A model generated the notes under the pieces. The model was not told where the DNA came from, searched no databases, and worked only from the letters and a program-made list of their open reading frames with translations. Shown piece by piece: positions 14,967 to 63,622 of a stretch of 64,000 bases of DNA. A program made the position numbers and the translations under genes. Positions within the stretch are counted from its first letter, which is position 1. Each line of letters opens with the position of its first letter. The DNA is from a virus: UHGV virus genome UHGV-1351772. One strand, 5' to 3'.

Positions 14967-16229
14967 TTATTTAGATTTTTCGTAAGCAGCGATACCTGCG
15001 GAGATATAGCCGTTCAGACCGCTGGCCAGGTGTTTCTGGGTAGAAGCAATAATTTTCTCATTAAAAGAGAGACTACGTTGAACACTGGTAATGTGGCGAC
15101 GTAACTTACGCACATTGTCGGTCAGTTCTGGTTTTTCATCGATCTTGACTTTATCGATTTCTTTCAACAGATTACCGATTTTATCTTCAAAGGACTTACG
15201 TGCGCTTTCGACTTTACGATAAGCCTGAACGTTTTTCTCGATCTGTTTACCCACTTCGTTGAAGAAGGCATTGATCTTAGCCAGTTCGCCAACAGACGGA
15301 GTTTTCACGCTGGTTTCAACGCTTTTCTCAGCTTCGACAAAGGTATAACTAAAGCCACCTTCTTCATCGTACTCGACTTTCGCAGAGACGTTGCCGAGAT
15401 GATATTCGATAACTTCTTTTTTGGCGATCGCTTCGAAAACTTTCTTCAGTTCTCCATCAAAAGAAGCATCGCCTTTAAGGGCTTTATCAACCATGCCAGC
15501 AGCATCAGTGGCTAAAGAAGGGACTTCATTACTATAGAAATTAGAAACTCTGTGCAGATCGTCTTTCAGTGACGGGATATCGTTGCCAACGAACTTGCCA
15601 TCGATAGACAGAGACTTGATAAAGCCACCAGAGATTTCATCTTTCTTCTGTTTGCCCAGCTTACGAATAACTTCATCGTATTTCTTAGCACGCGCCTGGA
15701 TAGATTTACCCTGGTTGTGGAATTTCAGCCAGCGATCTTTGATCTTACGACCCTGTTCTTTCAGCCAATCCCAGATACGACCAATGAAGGCTTTAATGTC
15801 TTCCCACAGGGATTCACGAGCAACCTGACGACGGTTACGAGAACCGTAGGATTCGTGAGCAACAGAAGAACGGTGTTCGAAGTTCCAACGAGAACGGATA
15901 GATTCCTGAGCAACGTCCAGCGCAGTCGCAGCGTCGTCCGGCATATCTTCTTCGGCGTCCATCGGTTCTTCACCGTCTTCGCCAGCACCTTCACCGTCAG
16001 CAGCAGCCTGAGCTTCATCCAGAACATCCAGCTGAGCGTCAGTTTCGTCGCCGTCTTCTGCCAGCAGTTCAGCGTCAGCGTCCAGAGCTTCGATCGGTTT
16101 GGTGTCATGCTCGATATCGGCCAGAGTGCCTTCTACGGATTCTGCTGGCAGTTCGATGCCGTCTGGAACTACAGTAGAAGTAGACTCCATAGACTCACGA
16201 GCAATTTTGTTTTTGTAGAAATTCGCCAT
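14967..16229 (-). CDS. acidic protein, tandem paralog A (possible scaffold or internal virion protein)
   Basis: 420 aa; MANFYKNKIARESMEST N-terminus, acidic D/E-rich region, shared LRKLGKQKKDEISGGFI motif and ...NGYISAGIAAYEKSK C-terminus with 16312..17583; biased codon usage; GAGGA RBS. Confidence 0.6.
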   Translation of the reverse strand: MANFYKNKIARESMESTSTVVPDGIELPAESVEGTLADIEHDTKPIEALDADAELLAEDGDETDAQLDVLDEAQAAADGEGAGEDGEEPMDAEEDMPDDAATALDVAQESIRSRWNFEHRSSVAHESYGSRNRRQVARESLWEDIKAFIGRIWDWLKEQGRKIKDRWLKFHNQGKSIQARAKKYDEVIRKLGKQKKDEISGGFIKSLSIDGKFVGNDIPSLKDDLHRVSNFYSNEVPSLATDAAGMVDKALKGDASFDGELKKVFEAIAKKEVIEYHLGNVSAKVEYDEEGGFSYTFVEAEKSVETSVKTPSVGELAKINAFFNEVGKQIEKNVQAYRKVESARKSFEDKIGNLLKEIDKVKIDEKPELTDNVRKLRRHITSVQRSLSFNEKIIASTQKHLASGLNGYISAGIAAYEKSK

Positions 16230-16247
16230 TTTAAGCTTTTCCTCTAA

Positions 16248-16270
16248 GGGGAACGTATTGTTCCCCTGAT
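16248..16270. terminator. terminator hairpin between the tandem paralogs
   Basis: ggggaac-gtatt-gttcccc. Confidence 0.45.
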
Positions 16271-16311
16271 GATTTATTTCAAGAACTGTACGGAACTACG
16301 AATCTAAATGA

Positions 16312-17583
16312 TTATTTAGATTTTTCGTAAGCACCGATACCAGCACCCAGGTAGCCATTCAGACCGCTAATAACGGTGTTAGCAACATAGCTAACTGCGC
16401 GGTTCAGGGTCTGGTAGTTCTTAACAGACCAATCGGCAGCTTGACGTGCGTTACGCAGGCCATCCCACTTGCTATCGTCTTTTTCGTTGTTCAGCGCCTT
16501 AGCAGCATTCTCAGCAGCCTGTTGCAGCTTCACGATTTCAGAATCGTAAGCACGGAAATCTTTCAGTACGGCTTCGAAGCCTTTACCGATCGCTTCCAGA
16601 GCAGAAGCAGCGCCAGCCATTTCAGAAACAGACGGAGTTTTCACGTCTTTATCGTCAGAAGCGTCGCCGGTGCTCATGAATGCGATTGCAGTGAACTTGT
16701 GGCCGCCAGCCAGTTCTTTAGTACCAGCCTGAATGTAAGCGTTGCCCGGCAGTGCCAGCAGTTTAGACGCATCACCTTTTTCAAAGTTCGGCAGAGTGTG
16801 TAGTTTAGAAGCAGCTTTACCAAACAGTTCTACCGGCTGATCACCACGCATTGCCTTGAATGCGTCATCGTCACCTTTGGTAACGGCAGTCACAGCTTCA
16901 CCAGCTTGTTTTTCCAGAGCACCGATGGAACCTTTAGCTTTACCAGCGGTAACTTCTTTCGCAATAGCGATAGAGCCAGCAGCATCGAATTTACCTTCGA
17001 TAGACAGCTTGGTGATAAAGCCACCAGAGATTTCATCTTTCTTCTGTTTGCCCAGCTTACGCAGCATTTCCTGATATTTCTTCGCACGTTTCTGTGCGGT
17101 CTTACCGACGTTGAAATATTTCAGTTTCAGGTCTTTGATCTTCGCAATCACTTCTTTACAGAACTGAATGAAACGATCGTAAAGATCTTTCAGGGTTTCT
17201 TTCCAACCTTCCTGTGCAGCAGCAGTCATACCACGACCACGGCGATAGGATTCGCGAGCCAGTTTAGTACGTTCCAGGCACCAACGACGTGCGATGGATT
17301 CCTGTGCCACTTCGTGCAGGGCAACCGCTTCTTCCGGCATTTCTTCACCGTTAGCAACGGCTTCTTCCGCCTGTTCGATAGCGTCTTCAGTACGCTCGGT
17401 ATCGGCAGCCAGGGTTTCACCGTCGGTTTCCAGCTGATCGAGCTGACCGTCGATAGATGCTACGTCCGCAAGTTGGACGTCCAGGTTCTCTTCTGCCGGT
17501 TCAACGTTGCTGATACCGTCGATTACTTCATCGGCCGCTTCCATCGATTCACGAGCGGCGCGAGTTTTTGCGAAATTTGCCAT
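16312..17583 (-). CDS. acidic protein, tandem paralog B
   Basis: 423 aa; MANFAKTRAARESMEAAD..., same shared motifs and C-terminus ...NGYLGAGIGAYEKSK. Confidence 0.6.
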   Translation of the reverse strand: MANFAKTRAARESMEAADEVIDGISNVEPAEENLDVQLADVASIDGQLDQLETDGETLAADTERTEDAIEQAEEAVANGEEMPEEAVALHEVAQESIARRWCLERTKLARESYRRGRGMTAAAQEGWKETLKDLYDRFIQFCKEVIAKIKDLKLKYFNVGKTAQKRAKKYQEMLRKLGKQKKDEISGGFITKLSIEGKFDAAGSIAIAKEVTAGKAKGSIGALEKQAGEAVTAVTKGDDDAFKAMRGDQPVELFGKAASKLHTLPNFEKGDASKLLALPGNAYIQAGTKELAGGHKFTAIAFMSTGDASDDKDVKTPSVSEMAGAASALEAIGKGFEAVLKDFRAYDSEIVKLQQAAENAAKALNNEKDDSKWDGLRNARQAADWSVKNYQTLNRAVSYVANTVISGLNGYLGAGIGAYEKSK

Positions 17584-17642
17584 TTCGTTTATTTCCTTTG
17601 GTTATATAACCCAATTACACGCCCCTAGAATGAGGGGCCCCC

Positions 17643-37745: not shown

Positions 37746-39845
37746 TTACTCAATGATAGTCGCGGCCACCGTATTGTCGTATAACGACGCCGGACGTTTA
37801 CGTGACGTGTAGAAACGCACGTTGTCCAGGTTTTTCTGTTGGCCTTCGAATAACAACATCGGTACAGCTGAACGCATCGCAATCAACGTGTTGTGATCCT
37901 CGAAACGTTTGCCATCCATCACATCAGCATCTTCACTATCAAACCCAACCGCCGGGAAAGGATTGGTCGGTGATTCAACGCGTGATATCGCCAGCATAAT
38001 CGCGATGTGTGTCATCGGAATACCACCGAGCTTACGTTGGATATATTTAAACACATCAAATAACGCGTGCGTACATTGTTTCTCCGTAGCACCGCGCATC
38101 TGAACCAGTGTCGTTGGTTTTACCTTACCTGACTTCTTGCTCAAACGCATTGAGTCATCAGAGAACTGTTCGAAAGTATCCGATTTATCAGACGCAACCG
38201 AACGAAGTTTCAATTCTAACCCTGCTACAAACTCCGCCATAGATTCAGACCGATTCGTATAAATTAGTATCGGCCAACTCGGTTTCCATCCTTTCAGGGG
38301 AATCCGTACCAGCTTCTTCGACGGGAAGGTAATGTTATCGCGCTGTTTCAGGAAGAAATGTAAGAAGGCTTTCGAGAAGTTACCACAAACCCCCATACGG
38401 ACGTCAATGGGATCTTCGGCCAACACATTCCCAGCTTCATCCAACCGCAAAAAGGTCAGTTCGTTAATCTCCGGCAATGCCGTTTCGTCGATCACTTCCA
38501 AATCATCGTGATACGCGATTTGGCTGATTTCAGAATAGACTTCATCGGAAATAACGAGTTGGTATTCATCCCAATTACCGTACTGCGGTTTCTCCCGTAA
38601 ACTCAATCCTTTTACGGAGTTGTGTTTATACTCACCAAGATAATCCCGCATTCTTGGAGTCAGCACCAGATTCAGCAGATAGCGTAAGAAGTCCAGGTGT
38701 TTCGTTGAGAGAATCCCCTGTGTACCCTTTTCAGATATCGAGGTTGAGGCCAAGTGGCCTGGTGACGTTCCCGGCGAAAGGTTATAAATCAAATCACCCA
38801 TGCAGGTTGCACAAATGCTTTGACGCGCCATCCCCTTACAACACATCGCGGTACGAAACTCAATAGGTTTGCCTAAGACTTTCTCAAACTCCCCTTTCTC
38901 GAATCGTAACCACGGGCCACCCACACCTTCAAAACGATAACGCATTCCCACCATCGCATCGTACTTCTTACGCTCCAGTTTACTTTCTGTAAACGTGTGG
39001 CGATGAACGTGATGTGTACCACAATCGTCGTATTCGAAATACATTAACACGTTGGCTGCTAACTGTAGCTTACGTGACGCATATTCCGCATCGGCGATTT
39101 TATCGGTATTATACAGGTGAGTACGTGACGTCGCTCCCGCTTCTTTCAGACGGCTAATTACAGAATGTAGACCCGTAAAGAAACCTTCCCATACCTGGTT
39201 GGAATAAACGCGAGAATCAATCTCTGATGTTTTCCCACGTATATACGCCTGAAGAACCTGGTTCATTTTGATGGTCTTATCCAAGACCGACATCACCACA
39301 GGGTTTAAACGAAGTTGTGGGTCTTTGAAGATATCTTCGATAAGAAGATACGCTTCTTCGATCATATCCCGACCTTCTTCGTCGTACCCAGTAGGATACA
39401 TTTGTGCCCACTGATGAATCTGCGTAAAATTTCGGTGTTGGTAAATTTCCATCATCGTATCGTAGTCAATCGTGACGCAATACGACAACAGATTTTTCAC
39501 CGATAAGTTAAACGCATCCGCATAGACGTGCTGCTGCAATAAATAGCGGGTATCTGCTAAATCCACACCCGCTTTACGTGCTGCCACAGCTGCCAATGAC
39601 ATAAACTTCAGATGTGCGTCATCTGTAGCGGTGTCGCCATGTTTATACGCCATTTGCGAACTGATTGGGATCTGCGGATAAAATCGTGTTAGCCCCCAAT
39701 AAGGCCAACTGATTTTAATGTGGCGTCCTGACATGTTTAAGGTTATCCCGTCATCGAACGTCACTTCATATCTGCCGCGCAATAGCCACACCTGATCCGA
39801 GTTCAGTTTACACAGATCACGCACGTGAACTGGAGTGCCCTTCAT
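37746..39845 (-). CDS. multisubunit RNA polymerase beta-prime-like subunit, C-terminal portion
   Basis: CATCMGDL...ISEKGTQGILSTKHLD resembles bacterial beta-prime CAKCYGRDL...IGEPGTQLTMRTFHIG region; immediately downstream of and coupled to the beta-like gene. Confidence 0.6.
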   Translation of the reverse strand: MKGTPVHVRDLCKLNSDQVWLLRGRYEVTFDDGITLNMSGRHIKISWPYWGLTRFYPQIPISSQMAYKHGDTATDDAHLKFMSLAAVAARKAGVDLADTRYLLQQHVYADAFNLSVKNLLSYCVTIDYDTMMEIYQHRNFTQIHQWAQMYPTGYDEEGRDMIEEAYLLIEDIFKDPQLRLNPVVMSVLDKTIKMNQVLQAYIRGKTSEIDSRVYSNQVWEGFFTGLHSVISRLKEAGATSRTHLYNTDKIADAEYASRKLQLAANVLMYFEYDDCGTHHVHRHTFTESKLERKKYDAMVGMRYRFEGVGGPWLRFEKGEFEKVLGKPIEFRTAMCCKGMARQSICATCMGDLIYNLSPGTSPGHLASTSISEKGTQGILSTKHLDFLRYLLNLVLTPRMRDYLGEYKHNSVKGLSLREKPQYGNWDEYQLVISDEVYSEISQIAYHDDLEVIDETALPEINELTFLRLDEAGNVLAEDPIDVRMGVCGNFSKAFLHFFLKQRDNITFPSKKLVRIPLKGWKPSWPILIYTNRSESMAEFVAGLELKLRSVASDKSDTFEQFSDDSMRLSKKSGKVKPTTLVQMRGATEKQCTHALFDVFKYIQRKLGGIPMTHIAIMLAISRVESPTNPFPAVGFDSEDADVMDGKRFEDHNTLIAMRSAVPMLLFEGQQKNLDNVRFYTSRKRPASLYDNTVAATIIE

Positions 39846-42082
39846 TATTCATCGCCCCTTTTCATTTTCACCAATTCAAACCCTTCACAGCTGTGAATGT
39901 TTTTCATCATCCTGTCAATCTGTGAATCCCCTAACGGGAATTTATTTCGGTCTACCAGTGGACCCGGATTAGACGGGGTTTGAGATCGATAAAGCCCTAC
40001 TAAAATCTCACGATGCACCGCAGGGTTATTTGCCCTGTCGTGAACTTCTTCGTAGTTACCTGGACCATAACCCGCTAACAGTCGTTCTTCCGAAGGACCA
40101 GCCCATTTTAGCGTTTTATAGTTTATCGGATACGAACCGCGGCCTTGGTTAGACGCGTCTATCGTACCCAGATAATTCAGATACATTGACGAGATACTGG
40201 AAAACTCACGACCTGTTTTATCCAGACGTAATGTTTCCACACCACCTACGTAAAACTCATTTTTTGTCCATTCCTGTTTACCATCGAAATTAGTAATCAG
40301 GAGTTTGGATTTACGCGGTTTAAATTCACCCAACCGTTCACTGATATCGACTGGCGTGTCGTCAAGTTCATGTGGTAAGTAAATACGGATTGTAAAATCG
40401 TAAATCTCTTTGAAAAGTTCGCGTTGTAAATCCTCCGTAGGATGCGTTGCCTGTAGTGTATTGGCCCATTCTGGATTATAGCGTGATAGATAATCCATCA
40501 GGATTTCCCAGCTCTCGCTGATACGTCCTTCATCCAGCAATGGTTTGAGACGCATTTTCAACTGTTCAGACGCAGCTGACCAATACATGTGGAATAATGC
40601 TGCATAAGTCGAGCGACGAATTACAGCGTTCATCGAACGTAAAACGTGAACACGTTCACCGAATTCGTTAATCGGCATCTGTTCAACGGGTAATACACGT
40701 CCAACAATCCCTTTCGTACCCGAGCGGTCGGTAATCTTAGACGACACCGTTACCGGGATCGGATAACGAACAGCAATACGAATGGTATACGTGTTGATGG
40801 GATCGCTGAGTCCACGTTGTACTGGCGAGGTCAACTTAGAAAGAATCTGCTGACTGACATTTTCTTTACCGTATTCACCACGACGAATTGCTTCATCAAT
40901 CACCACGCGTATCTCTTCACGAAACTCGTGATAGACCTCGTACGTTTCAGAAGCGAACGCTTTTTCCAACAACACACACGCTTTCGGCGACCAGATAATA
41001 TTTTTGTCACGGGACATCGAGAAATAGAATCGTACGATGGCATTGTAATAGTCTTTCAATGCTAATGCGTATTTATCCAGTTCTCGTTTGTTCTCTTCGG
41101 TACAAGAAATATTGTTAGCACCATTCGCGCAAGACGTTTCATCACGCCACACCTGGATATCGACGATACGTGTACCGCTACGCTCCATCAGTTCTTTGTC
41201 GCCTGCAAGACGTGCTTTATAATGGACGGGATCGGCATCCACATATTCGCAACTATCAAAGAACGGAGAGACGTGTTGAGTTTCCCCAAGCGACGCATCA
41301 ATTGCACCGTAAAGCTCATCGAAACGACGCGATGCAATGACCAACCCATCGTCACGAATAGCCTCTCCTACATCCGGGAAATACCGTGGGACGCGATTAC
41401 CGTTCGGATCGATGTAACCGTAAGTATCCAGTAAAAACTCGTCTTCACGTAGCGTCTTTTCAACGATTTTCAAACCATAACCGTGGAGTTTTTGGGCGGC
41501 GTACTCAGAGATGGTGTAAGAATCCTCGATGATATCAGAATGCGAAATCGTAACGGTTGGTAGCACGACGCTATCGGCGTACTCGCCTTCCACCATACAC
41601 GACATCGTTGTAAGGATTTCATCCTTTTCCAACTGATCGGTTTCGCCACGTAAAATACTACGCAGTTTCATCGACTCACGTTTCTCAGATGAGAAGATGT
41701 TGTCGTGGTTAGTATAGAAGTTAATCTCTAGCACATCTATCATGGTTTTACCGCCCTTCATTTCTGCACGGCGGAAGAAGATAGCATGTTCTAACGCTTT
41801 AGAATCCCCACGACGACCATAACGTGTAAACGTCGCGCGGCGCTGACGACCGTCTTTGGTCATATAGTGGCAGATGCTACCGGGATCTTCTACAACGTCG
41901 TTGAACAGAAAATCGTGGTAGTTTATATCTGCCCCTGTAAAATGCGGCGATGGTTCAGGATTGTCGATAGGGACCGCAGACTTCATATGGTTGCCTACCA
42001 TCGATGCCCTTGCACCTGATACTTCGGTGATATTAATCTCACGGTCAGCCACACTGCTCATTAGCTCTACTGGCGTTTTCAT
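39845..42082 (-). CDS. multisubunit RNA polymerase beta-like subunit, C-terminal portion
   Basis: DRSGTKGIVG...MP matches beta GDK..GRHGNKGV...MP motif; PDVGEAIRDDGLVIA matches PNVGEAALSKLDESGIV. Confidence 0.8.
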   Translation of the reverse strand: MKTPVELMSSVADREINITEVSGARASMVGNHMKSAVPIDNPEPSPHFTGADINYHDFLFNDVVEDPGSICHYMTKDGRQRRATFTRYGRRGDSKALEHAIFFRRAEMKGGKTMIDVLEINFYTNHDNIFSSEKRESMKLRSILRGETDQLEKDEILTTMSCMVEGEYADSVVLPTVTISHSDIIEDSYTISEYAAQKLHGYGLKIVEKTLREDEFLLDTYGYIDPNGNRVPRYFPDVGEAIRDDGLVIASRRFDELYGAIDASLGETQHVSPFFDSCEYVDADPVHYKARLAGDKELMERSGTRIVDIQVWRDETSCANGANNISCTEENKRELDKYALALKDYYNAIVRFYFSMSRDKNIIWSPKACVLLEKAFASETYEVYHEFREEIRVVIDEAIRRGEYGKENVSQQILSKLTSPVQRGLSDPINTYTIRIAVRYPIPVTVSSKITDRSGTKGIVGRVLPVEQMPINEFGERVHVLRSMNAVIRRSTYAALFHMYWSAASEQLKMRLKPLLDEGRISESWEILMDYLSRYNPEWANTLQATHPTEDLQRELFKEIYDFTIRIYLPHELDDTPVDISERLGEFKPRKSKLLITNFDGKQEWTKNEFYVGGVETLRLDKTGREFSSISSMYLNYLGTIDASNQGRGSYPINYKTLKWAGPSEERLLAGYGPGNYEEVHDRANNPAVHREILVGLYRSQTPSNPGPLVDRNKFPLGDSQIDRMMKNIHSCEGFELVKMKRGDE

Positions 42083-42110
42083 TTTAATGCTCCTTTAGGT
42101 TGAATCAGTA

Positions 42111-45645: not shown

Positions 45646-47358
45646 TTATTGATTAAACCATGCTACTTCTTCGCATTTCTTTCTGTTTTGAATTAACAGA
45701 AATTCTGCTAACATGTTCTGAAGTCGCGGATGAGGTGAATAGTCCAACATCACTGTCCCACACCGTAACATTCTGGCTGCTTCCGGTGTTGCCCTGAGAT
45801 TGAAGTTGAACGGTGCAATATGTTCACGAACCAACAAGCTGAGAGAATCCTTCAATGTTGATTGTTCGTAAGTATTACGATGCTTACGGTATGCTTGTGG
45901 ATAATATCTATCCGTTTTTATTTTAATCTCATTATCGATTGGCTCGATAGGATACCCGCCATTTAGCGGTGCCCGGATCATTTCACAACTTAACAACTGT
46001 GCAATCTCAGGCATTCCGTAATAGATGTAAACGGCTTGGGATATACCCATCGCGTTCTTAAACGCTTCTGCGTCGATTTCCTTGTATGTACGACGATCTG
46101 CAAATCGGTGCATCACTGCCGCCACCAACCATTCGTAGAGTTCGTAGAAAGGATATTGATGGTTAATGTTGATGGAATCTATCAACACTTTCACATCAGC
46201 GGGAGCAATATCGAGATTCAAAGCACGCACCGCACGACGATAGTCATTAAAGAATTCTTGAGTACGAACGAATTCCTTCATTGGTGCTTTAGTCCGAGCT
46301 TGAACCAGGTCAATCGACGAAGTTTTCCCCTTCTCGCCGTTGAACATGATTTTCTCAGGATTCGCTTTTAGCATCACGTTTTGACCGGAAATTTTTCCCG
46401 CGAAGCCCGTTTCAATTTCTTGCCGAATATTGAAATACATCCCCGCCACGATGTTGTTTTCAACCATCGTACCTGGTGGTAGTTCGGCACCGATTAACTT
46501 CATCGCAATTAAACGGATAACGGCGAACGCTATGATGTATTCCTCTACCATATCCGTACCGTAGCCGCAGATAGATGCCAGGACGGTAAGGTTTGCAGTA
46601 TTAGGTCCTTTACTCCCCCCGTCCTGAACTTTCGAAATCACCGACACTAAAAACTCACGCAACTTTGTAATGGCTGGCAGTGTAGCAATCTCGGTATCAG
46701 ACAACAGTTCCATGCAGTAGGTCAGGTTATAAACACTTTTGCGCTTCGACTCAACAGAAGCACGTGTTGCAGGAAAAGCGTCCAAAATCAAGAATACGGG
46801 AATAAACGGTTTTGTCATCAAAGACAAAATCACCAATTCGTAATAATCTTGTACGATATACGTCATCTCTTTTGGATAATTCGACGACATCTCTTCGTAC
46901 GTTTCGTGGACGTTTTGAGGAATCCACACCGAACCGTGTGGATAAAGCTGGCGGAATCTATCTGCGTGATGAAATTTAGCAATTCTCGCGACGAGCGTGG
47001 GGACGTGTTCACGAATAACTTCTGGGGGTTCATTAGCTAACAACTCTAATTCTTCGTAAACTGAAAACAGTTCGCTTTTCTCTTCAGGTGTTAAAGTTGA
47101 CCAATAACGCTCGATTTCCATGAACATGATTTTATCGTGCGTTACGATCTGTCCGAAACTATCGCGTACGTCTGGCACATTCACGTCTTTACGTCCATTT
47201 CGGAAACCATTAAACGCGACCTCTTTTTCGCCGTACTTTATCACTAAACGGTCACGATTCTTTTCAATGCGCATTTTAAAATCTCCAGGAATAACATAGT
47301 CGTCCACTAAGATAAAATCTATCTCAGATAACTTCGACTGTATTCTACACACATACAC
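45646..47358 (-). CDS. hypothetical protein
   Basis: 570-aa ORF. Confidence 0.55.
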   Translation of the reverse strand: MYVCRIQSKLSEIDFILVDDYVIPGDFKMRIEKNRDRLVIKYGEKEVAFNGFRNGRKDVNVPDVRDSFGQIVTHDKIMFMEIERYWSTLTPEEKSELFSVYEELELLANEPPEVIREHVPTLVARIAKFHHADRFRQLYPHGSVWIPQNVHETYEEMSSNYPKEMTYIVQDYYELVILSLMTKPFIPVFLILDAFPATRASVESKRKSVYNLTYCMELLSDTEIATLPAITKLREFLVSVISKVQDGGSKGPNTANLTVLASICGYGTDMVEEYIIAFAVIRLIAMKLIGAELPPGTMVENNIVAGMYFNIRQEIETGFAGKISGQNVMLKANPEKIMFNGEKGKTSSIDLVQARTKAPMKEFVRTQEFFNDYRRAVRALNLDIAPADVKVLIDSININHQYPFYELYEWLVAAVMHRFADRRTYKEIDAEAFKNAMGISQAVYIYYGMPEIAQLLSCEMIRAPLNGGYPIEPIDNEIKIKTDRYYPQAYRKHRNTYEQSTLKDSLSLLVREHIAPFNFNLRATPEAARMLRCGTVMLDYSPHPRLQNMLAEFLLIQNRKKCEEVAWFNQ

Positions 47359-48110: not shown

Positions 48111-48947
48111 TTAGCGAGACAATCTACGAAGGAACTCAATGACAAAGGGCTCGTTAACCAACTTCAAGCAACTGTAAATACGATCCATGGTCGTATCTTG
48201 TCGCCAGTGGTATTTCTCGGCGGTATTCAACACCACCTTACGAACCTTTCTGTCAAGTGGGGAGAACATATACCCATCGCCAAATAGCGTTAGAAACGCC
48301 TTGTTAAACGGGATCTGTTCGGGTTTACCGTAAAGCTTCGTGTACCATTCTAACCGACCTTTAATCTTGCCCGTGTGTGATTCTAGCAGATTCAACAGCG
48401 GGAAATCTTTGTAGGCCAGCAGATCGGCGGGGTAATGGGTTAAAATCAATGTGTCATGCTGCCCTTTCGGAAACACATCGAAGCTTTTGAATTGCTCAGG
48501 GTATTTTTCACCGTATAACTTTAACGTATCGTGTTCTAACGCATTAAAGTGGTGCTGGTTAGGTGTCATCTTTTCCTGCCCTCCCGCAATCGTACGGAAC
48601 GCTGCTTCGGGGAAGATTCTGTTCGCACTTTTATACGTACAGATATAGGGGACACATAGCACCGAAGGCGCTACCGCTTTCGCGGTAGCGTTAATAGAAG
48701 CAATATCTTCTTCAATCGATGCCAGCAACACTTCAGGTGTTAATCGTTCACGATTCGTTTCAAACGCGTAAAACGCGTTACGGAACAACGTCCGTAGATT
48801 CAGGTAAATATCCTGATACTTGTGGATAGGGACAGGACCCTTCCAATCGGCATATTCTCCTTCATGGAGAAGCCCTTCAAAAGCCAACGATGTAGCAATT
48901 GACATTTGATAAAACCCAAACGTGCGATCAACACTGATTGGGGTCAT
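48111..48947 (-). CDS. hypothetical protein
   Basis: 278-aa ORF. Confidence 0.5.
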   Translation of the reverse strand: MTPISVDRTFGFYQMSIATSLAFEGLLHEGEYADWKGPVPIHKYQDIYLNLRTLFRNAFYAFETNRERLTPEVLLASIEEDIASINATAKAVAPSVLCVPYICTYKSANRIFPEAAFRTIAGGQEKMTPNQHHFNALEHDTLKLYGEKYPEQFKSFDVFPKGQHDTLILTHYPADLLAYKDFPLLNLLESHTGKIKGRLEWYTKLYGKPEQIPFNKAFLTLFGDGYMFSPLDRKVRKVVLNTAEKYHWRQDTTMDRIYSCLKLVNEPFVIEFLRRLSR

Positions 48948-50092
48948 TTGATGCTCCTGATAATGTCAGTGACAATTTGTGCATCGTATTTAAACGGCAC
49001 TAATGCTTCTAACAAAATCGCTTCCACATTCTCTTCAGAGATGGTTTCCTCGACCTCTGCGTCGATGGCAAAACCGGCTGCGAGAATTTGCTCCTCTTCA
49101 GGCGTACGTATACGCGTACCTGAAATATGGAATGAATATTGTGATTTCCAACGAGTGATGGCTTCCGCCAATGGAGAATCAGGGTAATATTCAATTTCCA
49201 ATCGTCCTATCATTGAGGACGGATGAGTATCGATGTACTCAAGCGCAGAGAGACATTTCGCGTACTGCGATTCATAGTCCTCCTCCGCAGCAATTTTAAT
49301 CTGCGGGCAAGCGCGTTCATTAACCAAGAAATAATCTCTGGCTAAATCAGGAGTGAAATCGACAATAGCAAAGCCTTTGTCCTCTTCTTCACCCATTGCC
49401 AGGCGATCAGGGCTGCCTGGTACACGAATCTTACCCAATTGTTTCCTACGATGATCGTGATGGATGATAATCAAATGCTTGACTAACGGTTCCCAAAAAT
49501 CCGTATGGAAAAAGCGGGTAGACTCAACGGGAACTTGGAACTGAAAGCAGCCATGCATAAAGCAGAAATCCATCTGCTGTATACCACGCGTGGCTAATAA
49601 TTCAGCCATTTCCTGTTCTGTTGCGGTAGCATCAATGGATTCAGAACCCAGGGCTTTATACTCGTCCTGGACCCAACCGACTGTCGCTTCTAACGCCTCG
49701 TCGTAAAACACGCCAATCTTATCCAGATACAAACAATCTGCACCCACCGCCTGATTTAACTCTTCGACGATTTTCGATTGTTTGTGATCGTGGGAGGGTG
49801 TTCCTTCCAAGACACGAATAGCAGTATTCGTCTGTTTGGCCCAGAGCAATAACCAAGTTAAAAACCCTATGGCTTCCTGAGAATCTTCTTGCCGCAAATG
49901 CCGGGAATCATCAAATAAATCACCAGCTATATAAATAGCGTCAATCGTATTATCGAACCGTTCTAAGGTTTCCTTGAGCACGTTAACAATGTGCCACGTC
50001 GGTACACGACGGTGCAGTAAATGTACATCGCCCGTTGAGAAAATGCGCTTAACGCCAACTGGTTTCGGTGGCGGATTAGTAATCCTCTTCAT
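48944..50092 (-). CDS. calcineurin-like metallophosphoesterase, Mre11/SbcD-like nuclease (putative)
   Basis: Phosphoesterase motifs in order: GDVHL, GDLFDD, SHDH, HGCF, HHDH. Confidence 0.55.
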   Translation of the reverse strand: MKRITNPPPKPVGVKRIFSTGDVHLLHRRVPTWHIVNVLKETLERFDNTIDAIYIAGDLFDDSRHLRQEDSQEAIGFLTWLLLWAKQTNTAIRVLEGTPSHDHKQSKIVEELNQAVGADCLYLDKIGVFYDEALEATVGWVQDEYKALGSESIDATATEQEMAELLATRGIQQMDFCFMHGCFQFQVPVESTRFFHTDFWEPLVKHLIIIHHDHRRKQLGKIRVPGSPDRLAMGEEEDKGFAIVDFTPDLARDYFLVNERACPQIKIAAEEDYESQYAKCLSALEYIDTHPSSMIGRLEIEYYPDSPLAEAITRWKSQYSFHISGTRIRTPEEEQILAAGFAIDAEVEETISEENVEAILLEALVPFKYDAQIVTDIIRSIK

Positions 50093-51801: not shown

Positions 51802-53759
51802 TTACCCCGCCAATTTTAATAATTCCGAGTCAAGCGCGATACCGGCTTCCAAGTCCTCTTCAGTATCCTGGAAGAAACTGTTTATGTTGCTGATATTCTC
51901 GTTATGGAGAATCATGCAACTCGAAACCTCGTCCACATTCGTGCTTGACATAAACCCGTTGTCTGGGCGATAAGCCATGCCCAGTTCCATTTCAATCTGG
52001 TCGATTGCCAATCTACATTGTAACTGGTCGCCATCGAAATCCTGTTTGTCCACTCCATTCCTTTTGGAGCAGGTGTGCAATGACACCCTCCCATGCTTTC
52101 ACATGGGCACAGACTATATCATAACCGTAGGTATTGCTACCCGTAGGTCTCCCCCACTTCGCCGCTAAACTAAGCAGCTACTCTACTCGGTTTTACCCTT
52201 TCGATAGTCGTTGAACGATTTTCATCGCTGCTGGTTATCCATTATCACAACCCTTAGCATTATTGGTTAGCATAGGTTATCTTACGAATTGTTTCTGACT
52301 TTCGCCACCCTGTCGGGATCGTAAGCTTTAGGGGTTTCCAGCAATTCGAGGGATACGCACTAGAGGTTTCCCGTCTAGTGGGCCAGTGTTTAGCATTAGG
52401 TGCTTTGATGACGCGATCAGAAATACGCAGAGAACATTGTGTTACATCTGTCAGTACCGCTGAGATGAACAATGTCTGAATAGAAAGTTGAACCAATGTT
52501 GGGTTACGCAGAACTTCCAACATTAAGCCGAATCCGCCGGGGGATTCTTTAATCAACTCATTAATAATTTCATGTACCAACGGTACATACTGCATTGCCG
52601 CAAATGCAATGATGCGCTCACATTGTCGAGGTGTATAATCACGTCGACCTAACTTGTTCTCAATGTGAACACTCGCCAACGGAACCAACCAACGCCAAGG
52701 CGCAATAACTTTCAACGCATCATGAGGTTCAGAGATAGGAGAGATAGTCACACGTCCGCCCCACGGTACGTGTGTTGACCCGAGTTTTGCCCGATAGAAC
52801 CCAGGTTTACCTTCCATCACTTCCTGACGATGGTCAATATAGAAATACGCAAGCTGTCGATTCGCTTTGATCGCACGACGAATAATAAATCGTGGTTCGA
52901 TACGGCGTGCATTCGTGTACAACAACGCCACATTTTTTACTGCGTCGATAGCGCTGGTATAAACCGGATCGATAAAAATACCTTGTCGGCGCTCCTCCGT
53001 AACGATCAGTTTTGATGAAATAATCGGAAGGTGTCTTGGAAAGAATGAGAACGATTGTTCCTGAAAGAACTCACGCCATTCTAAGCGCACGCGCTCACTC
53101 TCATAACGGTTATTTTTCGTTGGTGGATAAATCTCCTTCCAAGCTTCCGGAGACGTAAGGATATTAAAGACGGTTCGATGGTGGTCGATAAAGTTTCGAA
53201 TTCCCCGTTCGAAGCCATGTTCGCCGAGTATTCTTTTCACCACGCGAGCACGTGTTCCCTCGTCCTTTTCTGGATGGTAGTACGGATCGATTAGCCACAG
53301 CAGTAAATCAGACCCGCGTTCTACCGTCACTTTGTTACGATTAAATTTTTTCAGCTTAGAGCCAAAGAAGGCATTAAAGAGAGACCAAAAACGTGGATTG
53401 ATAAAGTTACCCATCTCATCGGGAGCGCGTAACCAGACATCAGACGTAATCCGATGTTCAGAAACAACATGTCCGCAATGTGGGCAACGAAGCCCAAGAT
53501 TATAACGATGGGTAATAGGTGATTCGCAGGTCAGACTGCAAATAGGAGCCGAGTTGAGTGTTTCATCAACGATTCGGTTTTGGAGTATTTGGTTAATCAT
53601 CTCCGACGCTTCGATGGTATCCATCGTTGCAGCAACGTCATTGATAATAATCGGTGGTTTGTAGCCTTTTTCCTCCGCTTCTTGTATACAGTCACGTAAC
53701 ATCTTGTCGTGACTAATTAGTCGCCCCGAAATCCCGTAATATTCTAGTTTATGTTCCAC
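51802..53759 (-). CDS. multisubunit RNA polymerase beta-prime-like subunit, N-terminal portion with catalytic DFDGD; interrupted by a group I intron (exon 1 about 52446..53759, exon 2 about 51802..52087)
   Basis: Exon 1 has zinc ribbon CSLTCESPITHRYNLGLRCPHCG, GKPGFYRAKLG...GGRVTISP (cf. [20 protein letters not shown]) and LRNPTLVQLSIQ (cf. [12 protein letters not shown]); exon 2 has LHTCSKRNGVDKQDFDGDQL (cf. [18 protein letters not shown]); ORF-track splits this into two ORFs and reads through the intron. Confidence 0.75.
52088..52446 (-). other. group I self-splicing intron (ORF-less), boundaries approximate within about 10 nt
   Basis: On the gene strand, in order: P-like gaattgctggaaac (52331..52350), Q-like aaccagcagcg (52226..52236), R-like gttcaacgactat (52204..52216), S-like gatatagtctg (52110..52120), then a P9-like hairpin cccatg-tgaaag-catggg; P3 (ctgg/ccag) and P7 (gacta/tagtc) pairings possible. 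Confidence 0.7.
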
Positions 53760-53789
53760 GCCGAATCCTCAACAAAAAAAGAGAGGGAA

Positions 53790-53814
53790 GGGACAGGGGG
53801 TTTTCCCCTGTCCC
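53790..53814 (-). terminator. rho-independent terminator after 53844..55691
   Basis: gggacagggg-gtttt-cccctgtccc hairpin followed by T-run on minus strand. Confidence 0.6.
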
Positions 53815-53843
53815 TCAACTACTGCTTACTACTTACCAACTTA

Positions 53844-55691
53844 TTAGAAAGTCGGACGCCAGTCAGTTGCAGCGAAGGACATACCGAAATCGCTACCAAA
53901 TGCGTTAGGACCGCTACCAGACAGCGCGAAGTTCTCATTACCCGTGTTAACAAACACAGAGTGAGTGAGGCTGTTCGCTGCGGTAACACCATTCACCTGG
54001 AAGTTGCAGTTTTCAGTAATGTATTCCACCAGTGCTTTACCAAACAGCGGATTGATCGCCAGGTCAGACGCTTCACCCGTTACCTGCGGCTGTTTGCTAC
54101 CGAACATGGACGCAGCCATTTTCAGCAGGTACAGACGCTGGTCACGCGCATTCAGATAGCGGTGAGAGTAGGACTGTGCACTGATGTAGTCGATCGCATC
54201 GCGTTGGTTATCACCCACTTTAGTCAGAGCGGAAACCAAGTCCATATCCTGGAAGCTGCGTTTCTGGCTGTTGCTGAAATACTGACCAGAGATGGTCGGG
54301 CAACCGGCAATAACAACGTGTTTGCACTCGAAGTTGGTGACATTGCCCAGCAGTGCTTTGAAGCGAGTGCTGAACTTAGTCGCGCCGTTGCTGGCCATGT
54401 TATCCAGGATATTGAACAGGGTGTACAGTGCGTTGGTGTTACCCATCCCGATTTCGCTCAGGAGAGTAGACAGGCCACCGATACCGTTACCTGCACGATG
54501 GTTCACCACCAGGGCCGCAGTCGGGTTAGCGAAGGTGTCCAGGCATTTCTCGATAACTTCACGGTTACCGTCGATTTTGCTCAGGTCAGGTTTTTCGCTG
54601 CCCCATTCTACATACTCCAGAACGCGGGAGAAGCGGCGATCGGTTTTGTTCAGCGACTGCATGAAACGTTCACGCCAGCCACCAATAGTGGCGATTTGTG
54701 CGAACGCGGCCAGTTCAATCAGCTGACGCTCGATAGGTGCCATTGCCCCAGAGGACTGAGAATCCATCAGGGAAACAACCACTTCGGCTTCCAGCTGACG
54801 CAGGTCCTGAGTACCGTTAGTCAGGGTTTGAGGTTTACCTTTATGGCGGAGGTTGATGTAACCAACACCTGCAACGCTCGGATAATTCTGGAGGCGTTCA
54901 GAAGAGAACAGCGTCGGGTTATTATCGTTGTTGCCAGTGCGAGTGTGGTCAACCACAACCATCAGGTCAGCACGTTGTGCAGAACCGTTAACGTCAGTTA
55001 CAGAACCTTCTTCAACTACGCTGACTTGCGCGGTGAAGCGATCAGAACGGGTCATTTTCAGGTAGCCCAGGTAGCCGGAATGACGACCGAAGATACCCAA
55101 TGCAATCTGGCCCATGAGCTGGTTAGCCCATTCTTCGTTCATGGTTTTACCCAGTTCCGGTACGCAGTTCATTACCATGAACTGTACGCTTGGCAGATTG
55201 TGCTGAGTTGCAATCTGGTTAGTGATGTTGTTCATCACACCTTCTTGACTGAACAGCTGCGCCAGGGTGTAGTAGTTTTCTTTACCGTTGATTTCGTAGA
55301 AACGGATGGACTGGCCATGTTCAAAGAACAGGATACCATAGAGCCATTCGTTATGGTTATCGCCGGACGGACCAGCCACGTATGCAGCAGAACCCATTTC
55401 AGAGTTGATGCCGTCAATAACACCCCAACGGAAGTTACGCAGGTATGTGTTCTTCTCCGCCATCTTCTCAATCAGGCTAGTGAACTGAGAAGCAGTGGAC
55501 ACGAAAGACATGTATCCGAAAGCTTTATCGAAAGTAGAGATGTTTTTAGACATCCCACCAAAAGCGTTGGCCGCATTGGTATTATCCACAGTAGCAGCTC
55601 CCGCGCCACCGAAAGACGGAATTGGATCTGCAGCGGAACCAGCAGCACCAGTCACAACGTCGTTTTGATTGTCAATAAACTCTTTAGCCAT
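53844..55691 (-). CDS. abundant 615-aa protein; candidate phage nuclear-shell protein (chimallin), alternatively a virion structural protein
   Basis: Strong codon bias; AAGGA RBS; two tandem consensus promoter motifs upstream; own terminator; size and extended N/C tails are compatible with chimallin, but no direct sequence verification is possible here. Confidence 0.4.
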   Translation of the reverse strand: MAKEFIDNQNDVVTGAAGSAADPIPSFGGAGAATVDNTNAANAFGGMSKNISTFDKAFGYMSFVSTASQFTSLIEKMAEKNTYLRNFRWGVIDGINSEMGSAAYVAGPSGDNHNEWLYGILFFEHGQSIRFYEINGKENYYTLAQLFSQEGVMNNITNQIATQHNLPSVQFMVMNCVPELGKTMNEEWANQLMGQIALGIFGRHSGYLGYLKMTRSDRFTAQVSVVEEGSVTDVNGSAQRADLMVVVDHTRTGNNDNNPTLFSSERLQNYPSVAGVGYINLRHKGKPQTLTNGTQDLRQLEAEVVVSLMDSQSSGAMAPIERQLIELAAFAQIATIGGWRERFMQSLNKTDRRFSRVLEYVEWGSEKPDLSKIDGNREVIEKCLDTFANPTAALVVNHRAGNGIGGLSTLLSEIGMGNTNALYTLFNILDNMASNGATKFSTRFKALLGNVTNFECKHVVIAGCPTISGQYFSNSQKRSFQDMDLVSALTKVGDNQRDAIDYISAQSYSHRYLNARDQRLYLLKMAASMFGSKQPQVTGEASDLAINPLFGKALVEYITENCNFQVNGVTAANSLTHSVFVNTGNENFALSGSGPNAFGSDFGMSFAATDWRPTF

Positions 55692-55740
55692 TTTACTTAA
55701 TCCTTATAAGGTTTAATACAATTGTAGTGTTGGTTCACGT

Positions 55741-55754
55741 AGATAATATCTAGC
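55741..55754. promoter_or_regulatory. palindromic promoter-like motif AGATAATATCTAGC with downstream GATATTTT
   Basis: First of two tandem copies in the divergent region between 55691 and 55900. Confidence 0.55.
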
Positions 55755-55820
55755 TAAGATATTTTAGAATACACGTAAAACACACATAGCTTAAAATGAT
55801 TAACTACCGAACCATCACAT

Positions 55821-55834
55821 AGATAATATCTTTC
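55821..55834. promoter_or_regulatory. palindromic promoter-like motif AGATAATATCTTTC with downstream GATATTTT
   Basis: Second tandem copy, 80 nt from the first. Confidence 0.55.
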
Positions 55835-55899
55835 TCAGATATTTTTCAATGTGAGTGAGACTGTGACCGTTTCCTATGTGTAACCCCAAGGAGTAAGTC

Positions 55900-56961
55900 A
55901 TGTTCAGTCAAGCCGAGTTAAACCAAGCAGCCATAAAGGGTAAATTCGAAGACCCTTCCGCTATACAATTGGTCAGTGCCGTAAAAAATAATAATCAGCG
56001 CATTCGCAACTATTTAGAGTCCATTCAAACCCGTGTTGTTTCAGGCCATCTGGTACTCAAAATCTTAGCGGCTATCGGATATGCGGGTGAACCCAGCTAC
56101 GAAGAGATCGAGTGGGCATGTCGACGCAAGCTTTCCGATATCGGTAATGCGCTACACCTAACTTCTGTGGGGGAGTATGGTCAAGTTTTCAACGGGATCT
56201 TTATCGAGGGGCAAGATGAGATTATTTCACTCGTCGCACGTCCTATTGATCCTGAACTGTCTTTTCGTGACTACACACCTGCAGTTTATCTTTATCACGA
56301 GTACACGAATCTTAACTGGAGTCTCGGGAACGGCAAACCCCGTGGCATCAGTATTATTGAAATTAATCTGGTTGCACTGCTATGGCAATACGTTCTTGCA
56401 GAACAATACTACCGAACGCAATCCGAACCGATTAACCGTGTAGTTTACGCGCAACGACACATCATTTACCGTATGTTACCCAGCTACATGAATATTGCTT
56501 TTTTAAATATTCATCGCGCTGTCGCAACGGGTAAAGAAGTCGAACCCGAAACGCCACTTCGTGTTATCCCTACACCACCTTTGCGTGAACTTTCAATTAA
56601 ACACGCAACGCAAGTTTGTAAAGCACTTCGTGCAGGTAAACCTTTACCTGGTGTGGTCATGGCACACATTCCACAGTTCTTTGATGATCCGACACACCCT
56701 ACCACTGCGGTAGACCGCATCCTTTTTAAAGACCCAGGCTCAACCATTCAAGGTAGTTGGCATCGAAACATCGTGAACTGGTATTGGGCGTTGTTCTGCT
56801 TACAGTTCGACAATTCGAGTATGAGCAAATACAAATCCAATTTAATGGTGCGTATAGCCAGATTCGAAGATGCGAAGATATTGGAAAAACTTACACGGTC
56901 GGCTAGAAATTACTATCGACACGAGTTAATTTTACCATTATATCACGCATTAGAAAATTAA
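55900..56961 (+). CDS. hypothetical protein
   Basis: 353-aa ORF downstream of the tandem motifs; terminator hairpin at 57014..57040. Confidence 0.6.
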   Translation: MFSQAELNQAAIKGKFEDPSAIQLVSAVKNNNQRIRNYLESIQTRVVSGHLVLKILAAIGYAGEPSYEEIEWACRRKLSDIGNALHLTSVGEYGQVFNGIFIEGQDEIISLVARPIDPELSFRDYTPAVYLYHEYTNLNWSLGNGKPRGISIIEINLVALLWQYVLAEQYYRTQSEPINRVVYAQRHIIYRMLPSYMNIAFLNIHRAVATGKEVEPETPLRVIPTPPLRELSIKHATQVCKALRAGKPLPGVVMAHIPQFFDDPTHPTTAVDRILFKDPGSTIQGSWHRNIVNWYWALFCLQFDNSSMSKYKSNLMVRIARFEDAKILEKLTRSARNYYRHELILPLYHALEN

Positions 56962-57193: not shown

Positions 57194-59506
57194 TCATTCG
57201 TCGTCAAAAACCTCTTCTTCGTCTTCATCTTCTTCGTCATCCCCTGCCCTCTCCGATTTCTTAACGTATTGTACTTCCGCCAATTCCTTGTACAATTCGT
57301 CTTTCTCCTCGGCCTTGTCGTAGAAATCTGACAACAACCTCATCCTGTTTTTATCCATCATGAACACACCTAAGCATTCGAGAATGTGATAGTACGGTTC
57401 AACCGTAGAGAAAGCAGTACGACGGATATCTGCAATATCGATCAGTTCTTTAGGGATACCATAGTTTTCCACCAAATGTTCTGGCAGAATCAGTGTTTTA
57501 TATTTACGGAAGTTTGTCTCCTCAAACCACGCCGATGCACCGTTCTTGATAATCGGATCTTCGATACTGTCAATCCACTCTTTAATCTTCGTTTTGTTTT
57601 CCAATGTTACCGGAAGCTTCACTGCATCATACGGCGGTTCTTCCAAATAACCAAACTTCGGACCAAAGATAGCATTATACATTCGGTGGTAATGGTAGTT
57701 CTTCTCATCCTTCTCGTTATAAGCGCTACGTTCCTTGATGTTCGTCGTTTTCAAATACCCTGGATTCCCAGAACGAATAGAATCCATAATCGTGTGTTCG
57801 ATTTGGGCAACCTTTTCCAGCAACGGAATGATTTCGATCTGATCGCCACGGGCAACAACTTCACATAACCCTTTGATGGTGTTCTTAAACTCCTTCATGA
57901 TAATCGGAGGAATGTTAGACGTACGTAAAGACACACCTTTTACTTCCAGCTCGGGATCTTTTTTCAGCTGGCCTTCCTGTCCAGTAATCAATGAGAAGTA
58001 ATGTTTTGCTTTAGTGGTTAATGCAAACGAATCAAACTTAAATTCATTCTTCATTGCATACAGGAACAAACGCTCCTTCGCCACACCGATGTTTGCTGAC
58101 ATACTCGCCATCAAGTGCCGTAAGTGCTGTGTCGCAATATAGATCATCGCATTGGAAACACGGGTAGCTACCTCACCGTAATGTTTACCGGTGTACCAGA
58201 TTGCCCACCATTGCGCAGTCATCATTGTAGAGTCAGTATCAGATACTACCCCTACACGACGAACCACATCCGGCATTCGAGCAATATTGATTGGTAAGTT
58301 TTTCGTGGTAAGAATATTGCGAATCAGTAGCGCGTATTTACCGATCGTTTTCTGTAAGAACACTGCGGAACGAATTAATTCTTTATACCCATCCTGCTGT
58401 TCCCACGGCAACGGTTTTTTATTACCATCAAGTTTCTTAACGTCACTGAACGCTTTACCCATCGGTACTACGTCGGTACGGAACTGCGAGATAATAATCT
58501 GCATATCACCATCGATGGTCTTCTCAGCAGCAACCCAGTCCGTATCAGTCCAGCCTTCGGTATCAACACGCACATCTGGGGTAATTAATGCGCCAATAAA
58601 GTCGCGCATGAATTTATCGTTGTATTTAGCCAGGTGGAAAAAATCACCCATGTAAACAAACGCCGCTCGCGTCAACGCTGATACATTACTAACGTAATGC
58701 TCAACGAACTCCATCCCCTCTTCGTTCTTAAAGTAGAAATCGGCAGAATAATGAATAACCTCCATCACCTCTTCTACCGACGGATAATGAAGCTCATACG
58801 TCTCCATACATTTCTTAAAGCTATTCCAATCGGTTAAAGTACCGATAGATAAGAAATGATCGATAATGCGTGACGGGGTTTCGTAATGTCTATTACCTCC
58901 TAATAAACGCTCATTTCCAGCATTGCCGAACGAAGTTGCAGTACGACAAGTGGACGTCAGTGTGGAGTGTGAGGACTGATTAAAAAGGATCGTGAACGGG
59001 GAGGAAAATGCGCCCGACATACCGTTGTTCAGCGTCTTGACCGCATTCTGTTCGTTCTTTTTGTTGATATTTAATACTACATTGCCCGCTGCTGCTGCTG
59101 CAAACATTTCCTTTTTTACCGCATCACGTTTCGCTACGTTAGCTGCTGTGAATTCAGACAACTTAGAACGTTTGACATGTTCGGGCAAATAAAAAGTTAA
59201 CGAAGGTGCGGAGATAATCTGTTTGTCAATGACGGTTTTAAATAACTTATCGACGGTAGTGTATTTTTCCTCACGATCGCCCGTTTTCTGATTACGCACC
59301 CACATCTTACACACGGGTGATTCGGTTGCTAACTCACCGCCAGGTGCAATAAGAGCATCAACTTCCTGACGACAAAACTCTAAAGGGTATTTTTGTGCGG
59401 TCACGTTATGAATGTATAACGCGACTTGTTCGCGGTAGGCATCGTTGACATCGATATCACGATGGTATTCATCTACCGTTAAACGAAAAGGAGAAATGTA
59501 TTCCAC
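57194..59506 (-). CDS. family-B DNA polymerase, C-terminal (polymerase) part, putative
   Basis: Motif C-like VVSDTDS, downstream KxY-like TKAKHYF, possible motif B-like KTLNNGMSGAF; highly acidic C-terminal tail; complements the exonuclease/motif A gene at 28135..29916. Confidence 0.5.
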   Translation of the reverse strand: MEYISPFRLTVDEYHRDIDVNDAYREQVALYIHNVTAQKYPLEFCRQEVDALIAPGGELATESPVCKMWVRNQKTGDREEKYTTVDKLFKTVIDKQIISAPSLTFYLPEHVKRSKLSEFTAANVAKRDAVKKEMFAAAAAGNVVLNINKKNEQNAVKTLNNGMSGAFSSPFTILFNQSSHSTLTSTCRTATSFGNAGNERLLGGNRHYETPSRIIDHFLSIGTLTDWNSFKKCMETYELHYPSVEEVMEVIHYSADFYFKNEEGMEFVEHYVSNVSALTRAAFVYMGDFFHLAKYNDKFMRDFIGALITPDVRVDTEGWTDTDWVAAEKTIDGDMQIIISQFRTDVVPMGKAFSDVKKLDGNKKPLPWEQQDGYKELIRSAVFLQKTIGKYALLIRNILTTKNLPINIARMPDVVRRVGVVSDTDSTMMTAQWWAIWYTGKHYGEVATRVSNAMIYIATQHLRHLMASMSANIGVAKERLFLYAMKNEFKFDSFALTTKAKHYFSLITGQEGQLKKDPELEVKGVSLRTSNIPPIIMKEFKNTIKGLCEVVARGDQIEIIPLLEKVAQIEHTIMDSIRSGNPGYLKTTNIKERSAYNEKDEKNYHYHRMYNAIFGPKFGYLEEPPYDAVKLPVTLENKTKIKEWIDSIEDPIIKNGASAWFEETNFRKYKTLILPEHLVENYGIPKELIDIADIRRTAFSTVEPYYHILECLGVFMMDKNRMRLLSDFYDKAEEKDELYKELAEVQYVKKSERAGDDEEDEDEEEVFDDE

Positions 59507-63589: not shown

Positions 63590-63622
63590 TAACGTTAATA
63601 CTCCTTTAAGGGAACATCATTA

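Follow-up and report, generated by a model that had tools for sequence, protein, structure and literature searches.

The window analyzed here is a 64,000-nucleotide stretch of the UHGV virus genome UHGV-1351772. Its minus-strand gene at positions 53,844-55,691, referred to below as chmA, very probably encodes ChmA (chimallin), the major phage-nucleus protein, of an uncultivated jumbo phage of ∼222 kb that belongs to the PhuZ-less, SPN3US/Asesino-like branch of the Chimalliviridae. In the broad sense, chmA is a member of the chimallin family, of a divergent SPN3US/Asesino branch that has already been published. An earlier note on this DNA, made without database searches, had called the gene a candidate chimallin from its context and size, and this proposal is now supported by the predicted fold, profile comparison, gene order, and the literature on orthologues. 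Nucleus-forming phages, of which chimallin is the defining gene, are resistant to DNA-targeting CRISPR and restriction systems. Recognition of chimallin in unannotated sequence allows the whole element to be classified and predicts that it forms a phage nucleus, encodes two RNA polymerases of its own, and is without a PhuZ spindle.

Predicted fold and remote homology of the chmA product

The minus-strand open reading frame (ORF) was recovered at exactly the coordinates given in the earlier note. It begins with ATG, ends with a stop codon at 53844-53846, and encodes a protein of 615 amino acids with a mass of 67.2 kDa and a pI of 5.5. The start residue matches an invariant M1 in 13 homologues in the family alignment.

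An AlphaFold model calculated from 32 family members had a predicted template-modeling score of 0.80, with residues 64-573 forming a confident core between tails of low confidence. Comparison of this model with the PDB by Foldseek revealed that the top nine matches were all chimallin chains (201phi2-1 gp105, Goslar gp189, and phiPA3 PhuN), with E values of 3e-17 to 3e-21, target-normalized TM-scores of 0.68-0.72, and 536-610 alignment columns. The next match had an E value of 0.04, such that the published chimallin structures were the only significant matches. The same Foldseek list was obtained with an earlier, weaker model prepared from a shallower alignment. The two-domain core of chimallin is present in the model and consists of an α/β N-terminal domain and a GNAT-like C-terminal domain.

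At the sequence level, homology to characterized chimallins is detectable only with profiles. The chmA product falls in PHROG 8316 (E 1e-232), the function of which is unannotated. Alignment by hhalign of a 32-sequence profile of the clade with 23 canonical chimallins was clearly positive (99.7% probability, E 2.2e-25, 527 columns) and collinear from residue 50 to residue 607, and a narrow 14-sequence profile gave 89.6% probability at an E value of 1.9e-6. An exhaustive hidden Markov model (HMM) search of 1.84 billion representative proteins found only 24 proteins. At this scale the clade profile reached the library protein P0092 with an E value of 3e-4, and P0092 independently passes the Pfam model PF25677, Chimallin_Phikzvirus, with 35.4 bits against a cut-off of 27.

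Several observations weigh against the assignment. PF25677.1, which recognizes phiKZ gp54 with 1121.7 bits against a gathering cut-off of 27 bits, gave no match at E values up to 1 for either the chmA product or five close homologues, and no Pfam family of any kind was matched by the chmA product. No PDB chain was matched when PDB sequences were searched by phmmer with the single sequence or with the 14-sequence HMM, hhalign gave no significant result when phiKZ gp54 was the only target, and the protein shares no more than 13-16% identity with the solved chimallins. The profile on which the strong hhalign result relies contains distant sequences that had been added at E values of 1e-13 to 3e-4. 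The structure is itself a prediction in which the tails are unmodeled, and the tail-swapping contacts are putative. Expression timing, abundance, and localization are predictions for this phage, and the early class of the promoter motifs described below rests on motif similarity, not on mapped transcript ends. Given that the clade lies below the PF25677.1 threshold, it is best regarded as a divergent sister branch outside the Pfam family as modeled. Precomputed PF25677.3 marks on three homologues, of unstated strength, were not reproduced with PF25677.1.

The core is flanked by ∼60 N-terminal and ∼40 C-terminal residues that are predicted to be disordered and contain short conserved motifs (Table 1). 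The predicted local distance difference test score (pLDDT) is below 50 at residues 1-63 and 574-601 and is also low for the remaining C-terminal residues. In the profile alignment, residues 50-60 pair with 201phi2-1 residues 46-56, which overlap the N-terminal segment (NTS) of that protein at 48-61, and the conserved FDxAFG motif occupies residues 54-59. By analogy, residues 47-63 would act in docking. The candidate first C-terminal segment (CTS1) aligns with 201phi2-1 residues 588-610, where CTS1 spans 590-611, and its FxNxGxExFxLSG motif occupies residues 580-592. The equivalence of residues 598-615 to the second C-terminal segment (CTS2) is only weakly suggested, as they align with 201phi2-1 residues 611-624, which reach only the first residues of CTS2 (622-631). 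A G-x-E sequence in the candidate CTS1 was considered as a prohead-protease site and dropped, the motif being too short to be meaningful.

Homology with the solved chimallins suggests how the chmA product may assemble and where it would be located. Docking of the NTS on a neighboring subunit would join monomers into tetramers, and the C-terminal segments would link these tetramers into a flexible square lattice. Such a lattice would surround the replicating phage DNA and keep host nucleases out.

Transcription signals and codon usage of chmA

The earlier note had described a double promoter motif ahead of the gene and a terminator of its own, both of which were recovered. The motif AGATATTATCTAYGTGA is present twice upstream of chmA with 0 mismatches, as a distal copy (P1) and a proximal copy (P2); such a pair occurs at no other gene in the window. 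When up to 3 mismatches were allowed, 7 matches were found in the window compared with 0.27 expected, a number equaled by none of 100 shuffles. Of 10 copies of the core GATATTAT in the window, 7 are intergenic (binomial ∼5e-5, given an intergenic share of 12.9%); all 7 sit on the sense strand of the downstream gene.

The chmA motif agrees with the predicted early-promoter consensus published for phiKZ-like phages, namely OBP (AKATATTATYWWADTG), N1M2, 201phi2-1, and phiKZ (TATATTAC). Such AT-rich elements, centered near -10, have been assigned to the virion RNA polymerase in a review, and application of this rule to P2 yields a predicted transcription start near 55736-55738. A scan for host-type sigma-70 promoters gave fewer sites than shuffled sequence, and a promoter of this type is hence unsupported. 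An inverted repeat of 6 bp, ATATCT-N5-AGATAT, overlaps each promoter copy (55746-55762 and 55826-55842). SPN3US keeps part of it, at P1 only, and its candidacy as a required operator was rejected because Asesino is without the repeat.

Conservation of these elements was counted over 16 IMG/VR chmA loci with 42-100% protein identity. The two early-type promoters and the terminator are strictly conserved in position: both motifs are kept in 16/16 loci, with P1 at -138 to -151 and P2 at -54 to -59, and a hairpin followed by a T7 tract lies 3' of chmA in every locus, the stems differing in sequence while pairing is kept. The P1 motif is also kept in the E. coli “plasmid” relative described below. 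In the window, the terminator begins 28 nt past the chmA stop codon and has a folding energy of -27 kcal/mol (z = -4.2), with none of 200 shuffles folding equally well.

A TATGTG element lies between P1 and P2 and occurs at -96 to -112 in 11 of the 16 loci. The late start-site consensus of phiKZ is given in a review as TATG, T-3 A T G+1, and TATGTG is accordingly a candidate late-type start for the non-virion RNA polymerase (nvRNAP); this is a hypothesis only, because an exact copy is missing from 5 of the 16 relatives.

Inspection of codon usage reveals that chmA has an effective number of codons (ENC) of 36.7 and a frequency of optimal codons (Fop) of 0.73, compared with window means of 50.3 ± 6.2 and 0.50 ± 0.09, respectively. 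Codons lean to the enterobacterial optimal set, with Leu encoded by CTG in 38 of 46 cases and Arg by CGT or CGC only. The strong codon bias and good ribosome-binding site (RBS) that the earlier note had reported are both present, the latter as AAGGA 9 nt ahead of the ATG. The claim that chmA has the strongest expression signals in the window holds only in part: by codon bias chmA ranks third or fourth, with the genes of the major head protein (Fop 0.83) and of one internal head protein (Fop 0.78) ahead of it.

The other strongly biased genes in the window are those of the major head protein (828..3122, minus strand) and of two paralogous internal head proteins (14967-16229 and 16312-17583, minus strand; Fop 0.73 and 0.78, respectively), and chmA is the sole non-virion gene in the top group. 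A plus-strand ORF of 649 amino acids, 53751..55700, spans the whole of chmA and is longer than chmA itself. This antisense ORF was rejected as a gene and is a codon-bias artifact: it is open only because chmA, in the same codon register, has no TTA, CTA, or TCA codons, the complements of which are the three stops. It misleads a gene caller that favors the longest ORF.

Table 1. Features of chmA and its flanking regions, in window positions; residue numbers refer to the 615-residue product
Feature	Position	Strand	Remarks
Residues 1-46, low-complexity, poorly conserved N-tail, predicted disordered	55554..55691	-	pLDDT ∼30; ahead of the 201phi2-1 NTS (hhalign)
Residues 47-63, candidate NTS (intra-tetramer docking), FDxAFG(W/Y)	55503..55553	-	D55, A57, and F58 nearly invariant
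Residues 64-204, N-terminal α/β core domain	55080..55502	-	
Residues 205-573, C-terminal GNAT-like core domain	53973..55079	-	
Residues 576-597, candidate CTS1, (S/L)(L/V)FxNxGxExFxLSGxG	53901..53966	-	Conserved; disordered in predicted monomer
Residues 598-615, candidate linker and CTS2, (S/D)DFG(L/M)	53847..53900	-	Conserved C-terminal block
RBS, AAGGA	55701..55705	-	9-nt spacer to ATG; TTAAGGA kept in SPN3US and Asesino
P2, proximal early-type promoter motif, AGATATTATCTACGTGA	55735..55751	-	Exact match; core begins 59 nt ahead of ATG
TATGTG element between P1 and P2	55783..55788	-	Candidate late-type (T-3 A T G+1) start, nvRNAP
P1, distal early-type promoter motif, AGATATTATCTATGTGA	55815..55831	-	Exact match; core begins 139 nt ahead of ATG
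Intrinsic terminator	53774..53816	-	12-bp GC-rich stem 53816..53788, 5-nt loop, CCCTCTC, T7 at 53774-53780

The arrangement suggests a model for the timing and level of chmA expression. The two tandem early-type promoters, if read by the injected virion RNA polymerase, would drive chmA from the first minutes of infection, and host-optimal codons would give a very high protein yield. The hairpin and T7 tract would stop most transcripts ahead of the RNA polymerase gene that follows; placement of a terminator before the polymerase gene would thus uncouple a structural-scale product from a catalytic-scale one. The TATGTG element between the promoters may add later transcription by the non-virion polymerase. 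The tandem promoters and terminator together offer a testable model of how shell protein could be made in bulk with the adjacent polymerase gene kept low.

Further copies of promoter-type elements were observed elsewhere in the window. Early-type copies of the form (A/T)AGATATTATC lie ahead of minus-strand genes at 738-754, 7306-7322, 14865-14881, 42105-42120, and 63617-63633, including one 38 nt ahead of the RNA polymerase subunit gene 39845..42082 and another ∼68 nt ahead of 14261..14812. Additional copies lie near 45908 and 47418, the former within the ORF 45646..47358, where it may be an internal promoter or the start of the ORF may be miscalled. On the plus strand, TTCCTATGTG at 55874-55881, ∼20 nt ahead of the divergent gene 55900..56961, is kept in SPN3US and Asesino and resembles the late-type TATG starts of the non-virion RNA polymerase. 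If TTCCTATGTG is of this late type, the 208-nt intergenic region would carry both temporal promoter classes, in opposite directions.

Orthologues and alternative functions

The best relatives among cultured phages are Erwinia phage Asesino and Salmonella phage SPN3US. The chmA product is 52.7% identical to Asesino gp039 and 51% identical to the SPN3US protein, over ∼91% of its length, and the three proteins share PHROG 8316. The SPN3US protein YP_009153316.1, which is the tblastn and annotation counterpart of chmA, appears as a diverged homologue of chimallin in Laughlin et al. 2022 (Supplementary Table 7; PMC9365700). Under the name gp22, this protein is reported to be abundant in infected cells, and it was not detected in purified wild-type virions (PMC7552025 and PMC7411985). 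A fusion of Asesino gp039 to GFP makes a ring around phage DNA, experimental evidence that gp039 builds the nuclear shell (PMC11724907).

The naming of the SPN3US protein, encoded by 15768..17621 in that genome, differs among sources: it is gp244 in RefSeq (ACQ60_gp244, YP_009153316.1) and SPN3US_0022, or gp22, in GenBank and the proteomics papers. A preprint gives YP_009153538 as the SPN3US chimallin, which by accession arithmetic would be GenBank-order gene 244, a different protein.

Among the alternatives to a shell protein, a scaffold-type role tied to proheads survives best and is nonetheless very unlikely. Preparations rich in proheads from SPN3US protease mutants contained co-purified gp22 at a level comparable to that of the major capsid protein, with gp22 absent from mature heads (PMC7411985), and the codon bias of chmA is comparable to that of the head proteins. 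The fold of the chmA product, however, matches chimallin only and no scaffold, and the Asesino orthologue rings the DNA mass and does not mark capsids. The early-type promoters of chmA also differ from what placement in a late structural operon would entail. Co-purification itself could have other origins: tetragonal sheets with a 67 Å repeat are present in SPN3US lysates and would co-sediment with particles, and Laughlin et al. ascribe these sheets to the chimallin homologue (PMC9365700). Docking of capsids on the shell could also account for it.

The GNAT tRNA-acetylating toxins AtaT and TacT share their fold with the C-terminal domain, and an evolutionary link of chimallin with GNAT toxins was proposed by Laughlin et al. 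The possibility that the chmA product is an active GNAT acyltransferase or a toxin-like enzyme instead of a shell protein is extremely unlikely. Canonical chimallin has the same GNAT-like fold without the active-site residues, no Pfam acetyltransferase model was matched by the chmA product, and expression signals on a structural scale are unexpected in an enzyme.

A virion structural role as capsid or tail sheath, the alternative named in the earlier note, is almost certainly wrong and has nothing in its favor beyond the size, codon bias, and high predicted expression of the gene. An HK97-fold capsid or contractile sheath is excluded: no capsid or sheath fold was found, the major head protein is encoded elsewhere (828..3122; PHROG 3231, E 8.5e-280) as are the internal head proteins (14967..17583), and no orthologue was detected in purified wild-type virions of SPN3US.

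Genomic setting and comparison with known phages

Identification of chmA as a chimallin gene is consistent with its surroundings. The window contains, in order, a DNA polymerase gene (57194..59506, minus strand), a divergent gene of 353 codons (55900..56961, plus strand), chmA, and an RNA polymerase subunit gene (52260..53759, minus strand), with an SbcD-like gene further along (48944..50092, minus strand). This is the order of phiKZ gp50, gp52, gp54 (annotated as nuclear shell protein), gp55, and gp65. In phiKZ, the homologue of the divergent gene is gp52, annotated as a structural head protein. A further RNA polymerase subunit gene is located at 39845..42082, and the genes for the divergent DNA polymerase, the SbcD-like protein, and the major head protein each belong to a phiKZ-type PHROG. 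chmA therefore occupies the conserved chimallivirus locus that adjoins nvRNAP beta-prime 1.

The earlier note had placed the gene next to a beta-prime gene, and the neighbor is indeed an RNA polymerase subunit gene that contains NADFDGD once spliced. This motif is the universal catalytic motif of beta-prime. The 499-amino acid ORF as called is without the active site because an intron interrupts NADFDGD. The intron is an ORF-less group I element of 350 nt at 52042..52391 (minus strand), within an nvRNAP beta-prime 1 gene that extends over 51802..53759, and was detected by the Rfam model RF00028 on 52090..52407 (minus strand), which scores 56.9 bits (E 8.7e-14) where the cut-off is 50. Splicing of 53759..52392 to 52041..51802 gives a protein of 535 amino acids, with 535/536 positions identical to the intron-less gene. 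The splice junction, KAPNA|DFDGDQL, falls within the catalytic motif, with T as the last base of the 5' exon and G as the last base of the intron. The intron is absent from the near-identical contig L006 and from the E. coli “plasmid” relative and is present in contigs L004, L005, and L007.

In agreement with the earlier note, which had reported that no PhuZ signature was present, a six-frame search of the window for the tubulin motif GGGTG[ST]G, which covers the signature GGGTGSG, was empty. This is as expected because the relatives form a chimallivirus clade that lost PhuZ. Asesino belongs to this PhuZ-less clade, the hosts of which agree with the hosts in the tblastn list.

The phage is known only from metagenomes and assemblies. 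Megablast against cultured phage records gave no match, nor did either of two scans of GTDB representative genomes turn up a relative. An index of public assemblies lists the identical protein in 397 blocks, including one NCBI assembly and IMG/VR contigs, and the contigs that carry it are 222-225 kb long. At 71-72% protein identity, the closest relatives are circular elements of 222 kb from E. coli and Enterobacter: NZ_CP173450.1, a circle of 221,873 bp from the urine isolate E. coli strain 98232, and NZ_CP134650.1, of 222,441 bp, from the complete genome of an Enterobacter ludwigii isolate, both deposited as plasmids. Their DNA identity across the chmA region is 76%, and chmA is annotated as a hypothetical protein. 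These elements fit a preprint description of persistent “Seoul-like” jumbo phages in bacterial assemblies.

The divergent chimallin marks an uncultivated PhuZ-less chimallivirus lineage with genomes of ∼222 kb. Neither PF25677.1 nor a direct search of PDB sequences detects the SPN3US-like branch, and automated annotation returns “hypothetical protein”, including on the “plasmids”; its chimallins are recovered only by structural or profile-profile comparison. An unlikely but conceivable extension of these observations is that the shell allows a non-temperate phage to be carried for long periods in dividing enterobacterial cells, and that its lattice geometry is unlike that of canonical shells. 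Under this reading, the conserved placement of two virion-polymerase promoters around a TATG site may let both phage polymerases supply shell protein throughout the prolonged infection.

Comparison with Asesino and SPN3US shows a common order of genes, comprising DNA polymerase, the divergent gp52-like gene, chmA, the terminator, nvRNAP beta-prime 1, and later SbcD, as well as an upstream region of 206-208 nt with two early-type motifs and a hairpin followed by a T7 terminator. The phage of the window differs from both in about half of the chmA residues, in a genome of ∼222 kb compared with 240-246 kb, and in the intron within the downstream RNA polymerase gene.

By comparison with the canonical chimallins 201phi2-1 gp105, Goslar gp189, phiPA3 gp53 (PhuN), and phiKZ gp54, the chmA product is similar in length, at 615 compared with 626-631 amino acids. 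The two-domain core, tails predicted to be disordered, and an end-to-end collinear profile alignment that includes the NTS and CTS1 regions are common to both. The genomic position of chmA is shared with phiKZ gp54, which has a similar hairpin and T7 tract downstream but only one recognizable early motif, at -80, instead of two. The clade of chmA is also without the PhuZ tubulin that accompanies the canonical chimallins, and a lattice period of 13.5 nm has been reported for SPN3US, whose canonical counterparts in 201phi2-1 and Goslar have shells with a period of 11.5 nm (Laughlin et al. 2022, PMC9365700). The current understanding of chimallin is not overturned by these comparisons, to which the present analysis adds a conserved architecture of tandem promoters and terminator, the escape of the gene from annotation on “plasmids”, and an adjacent intron.

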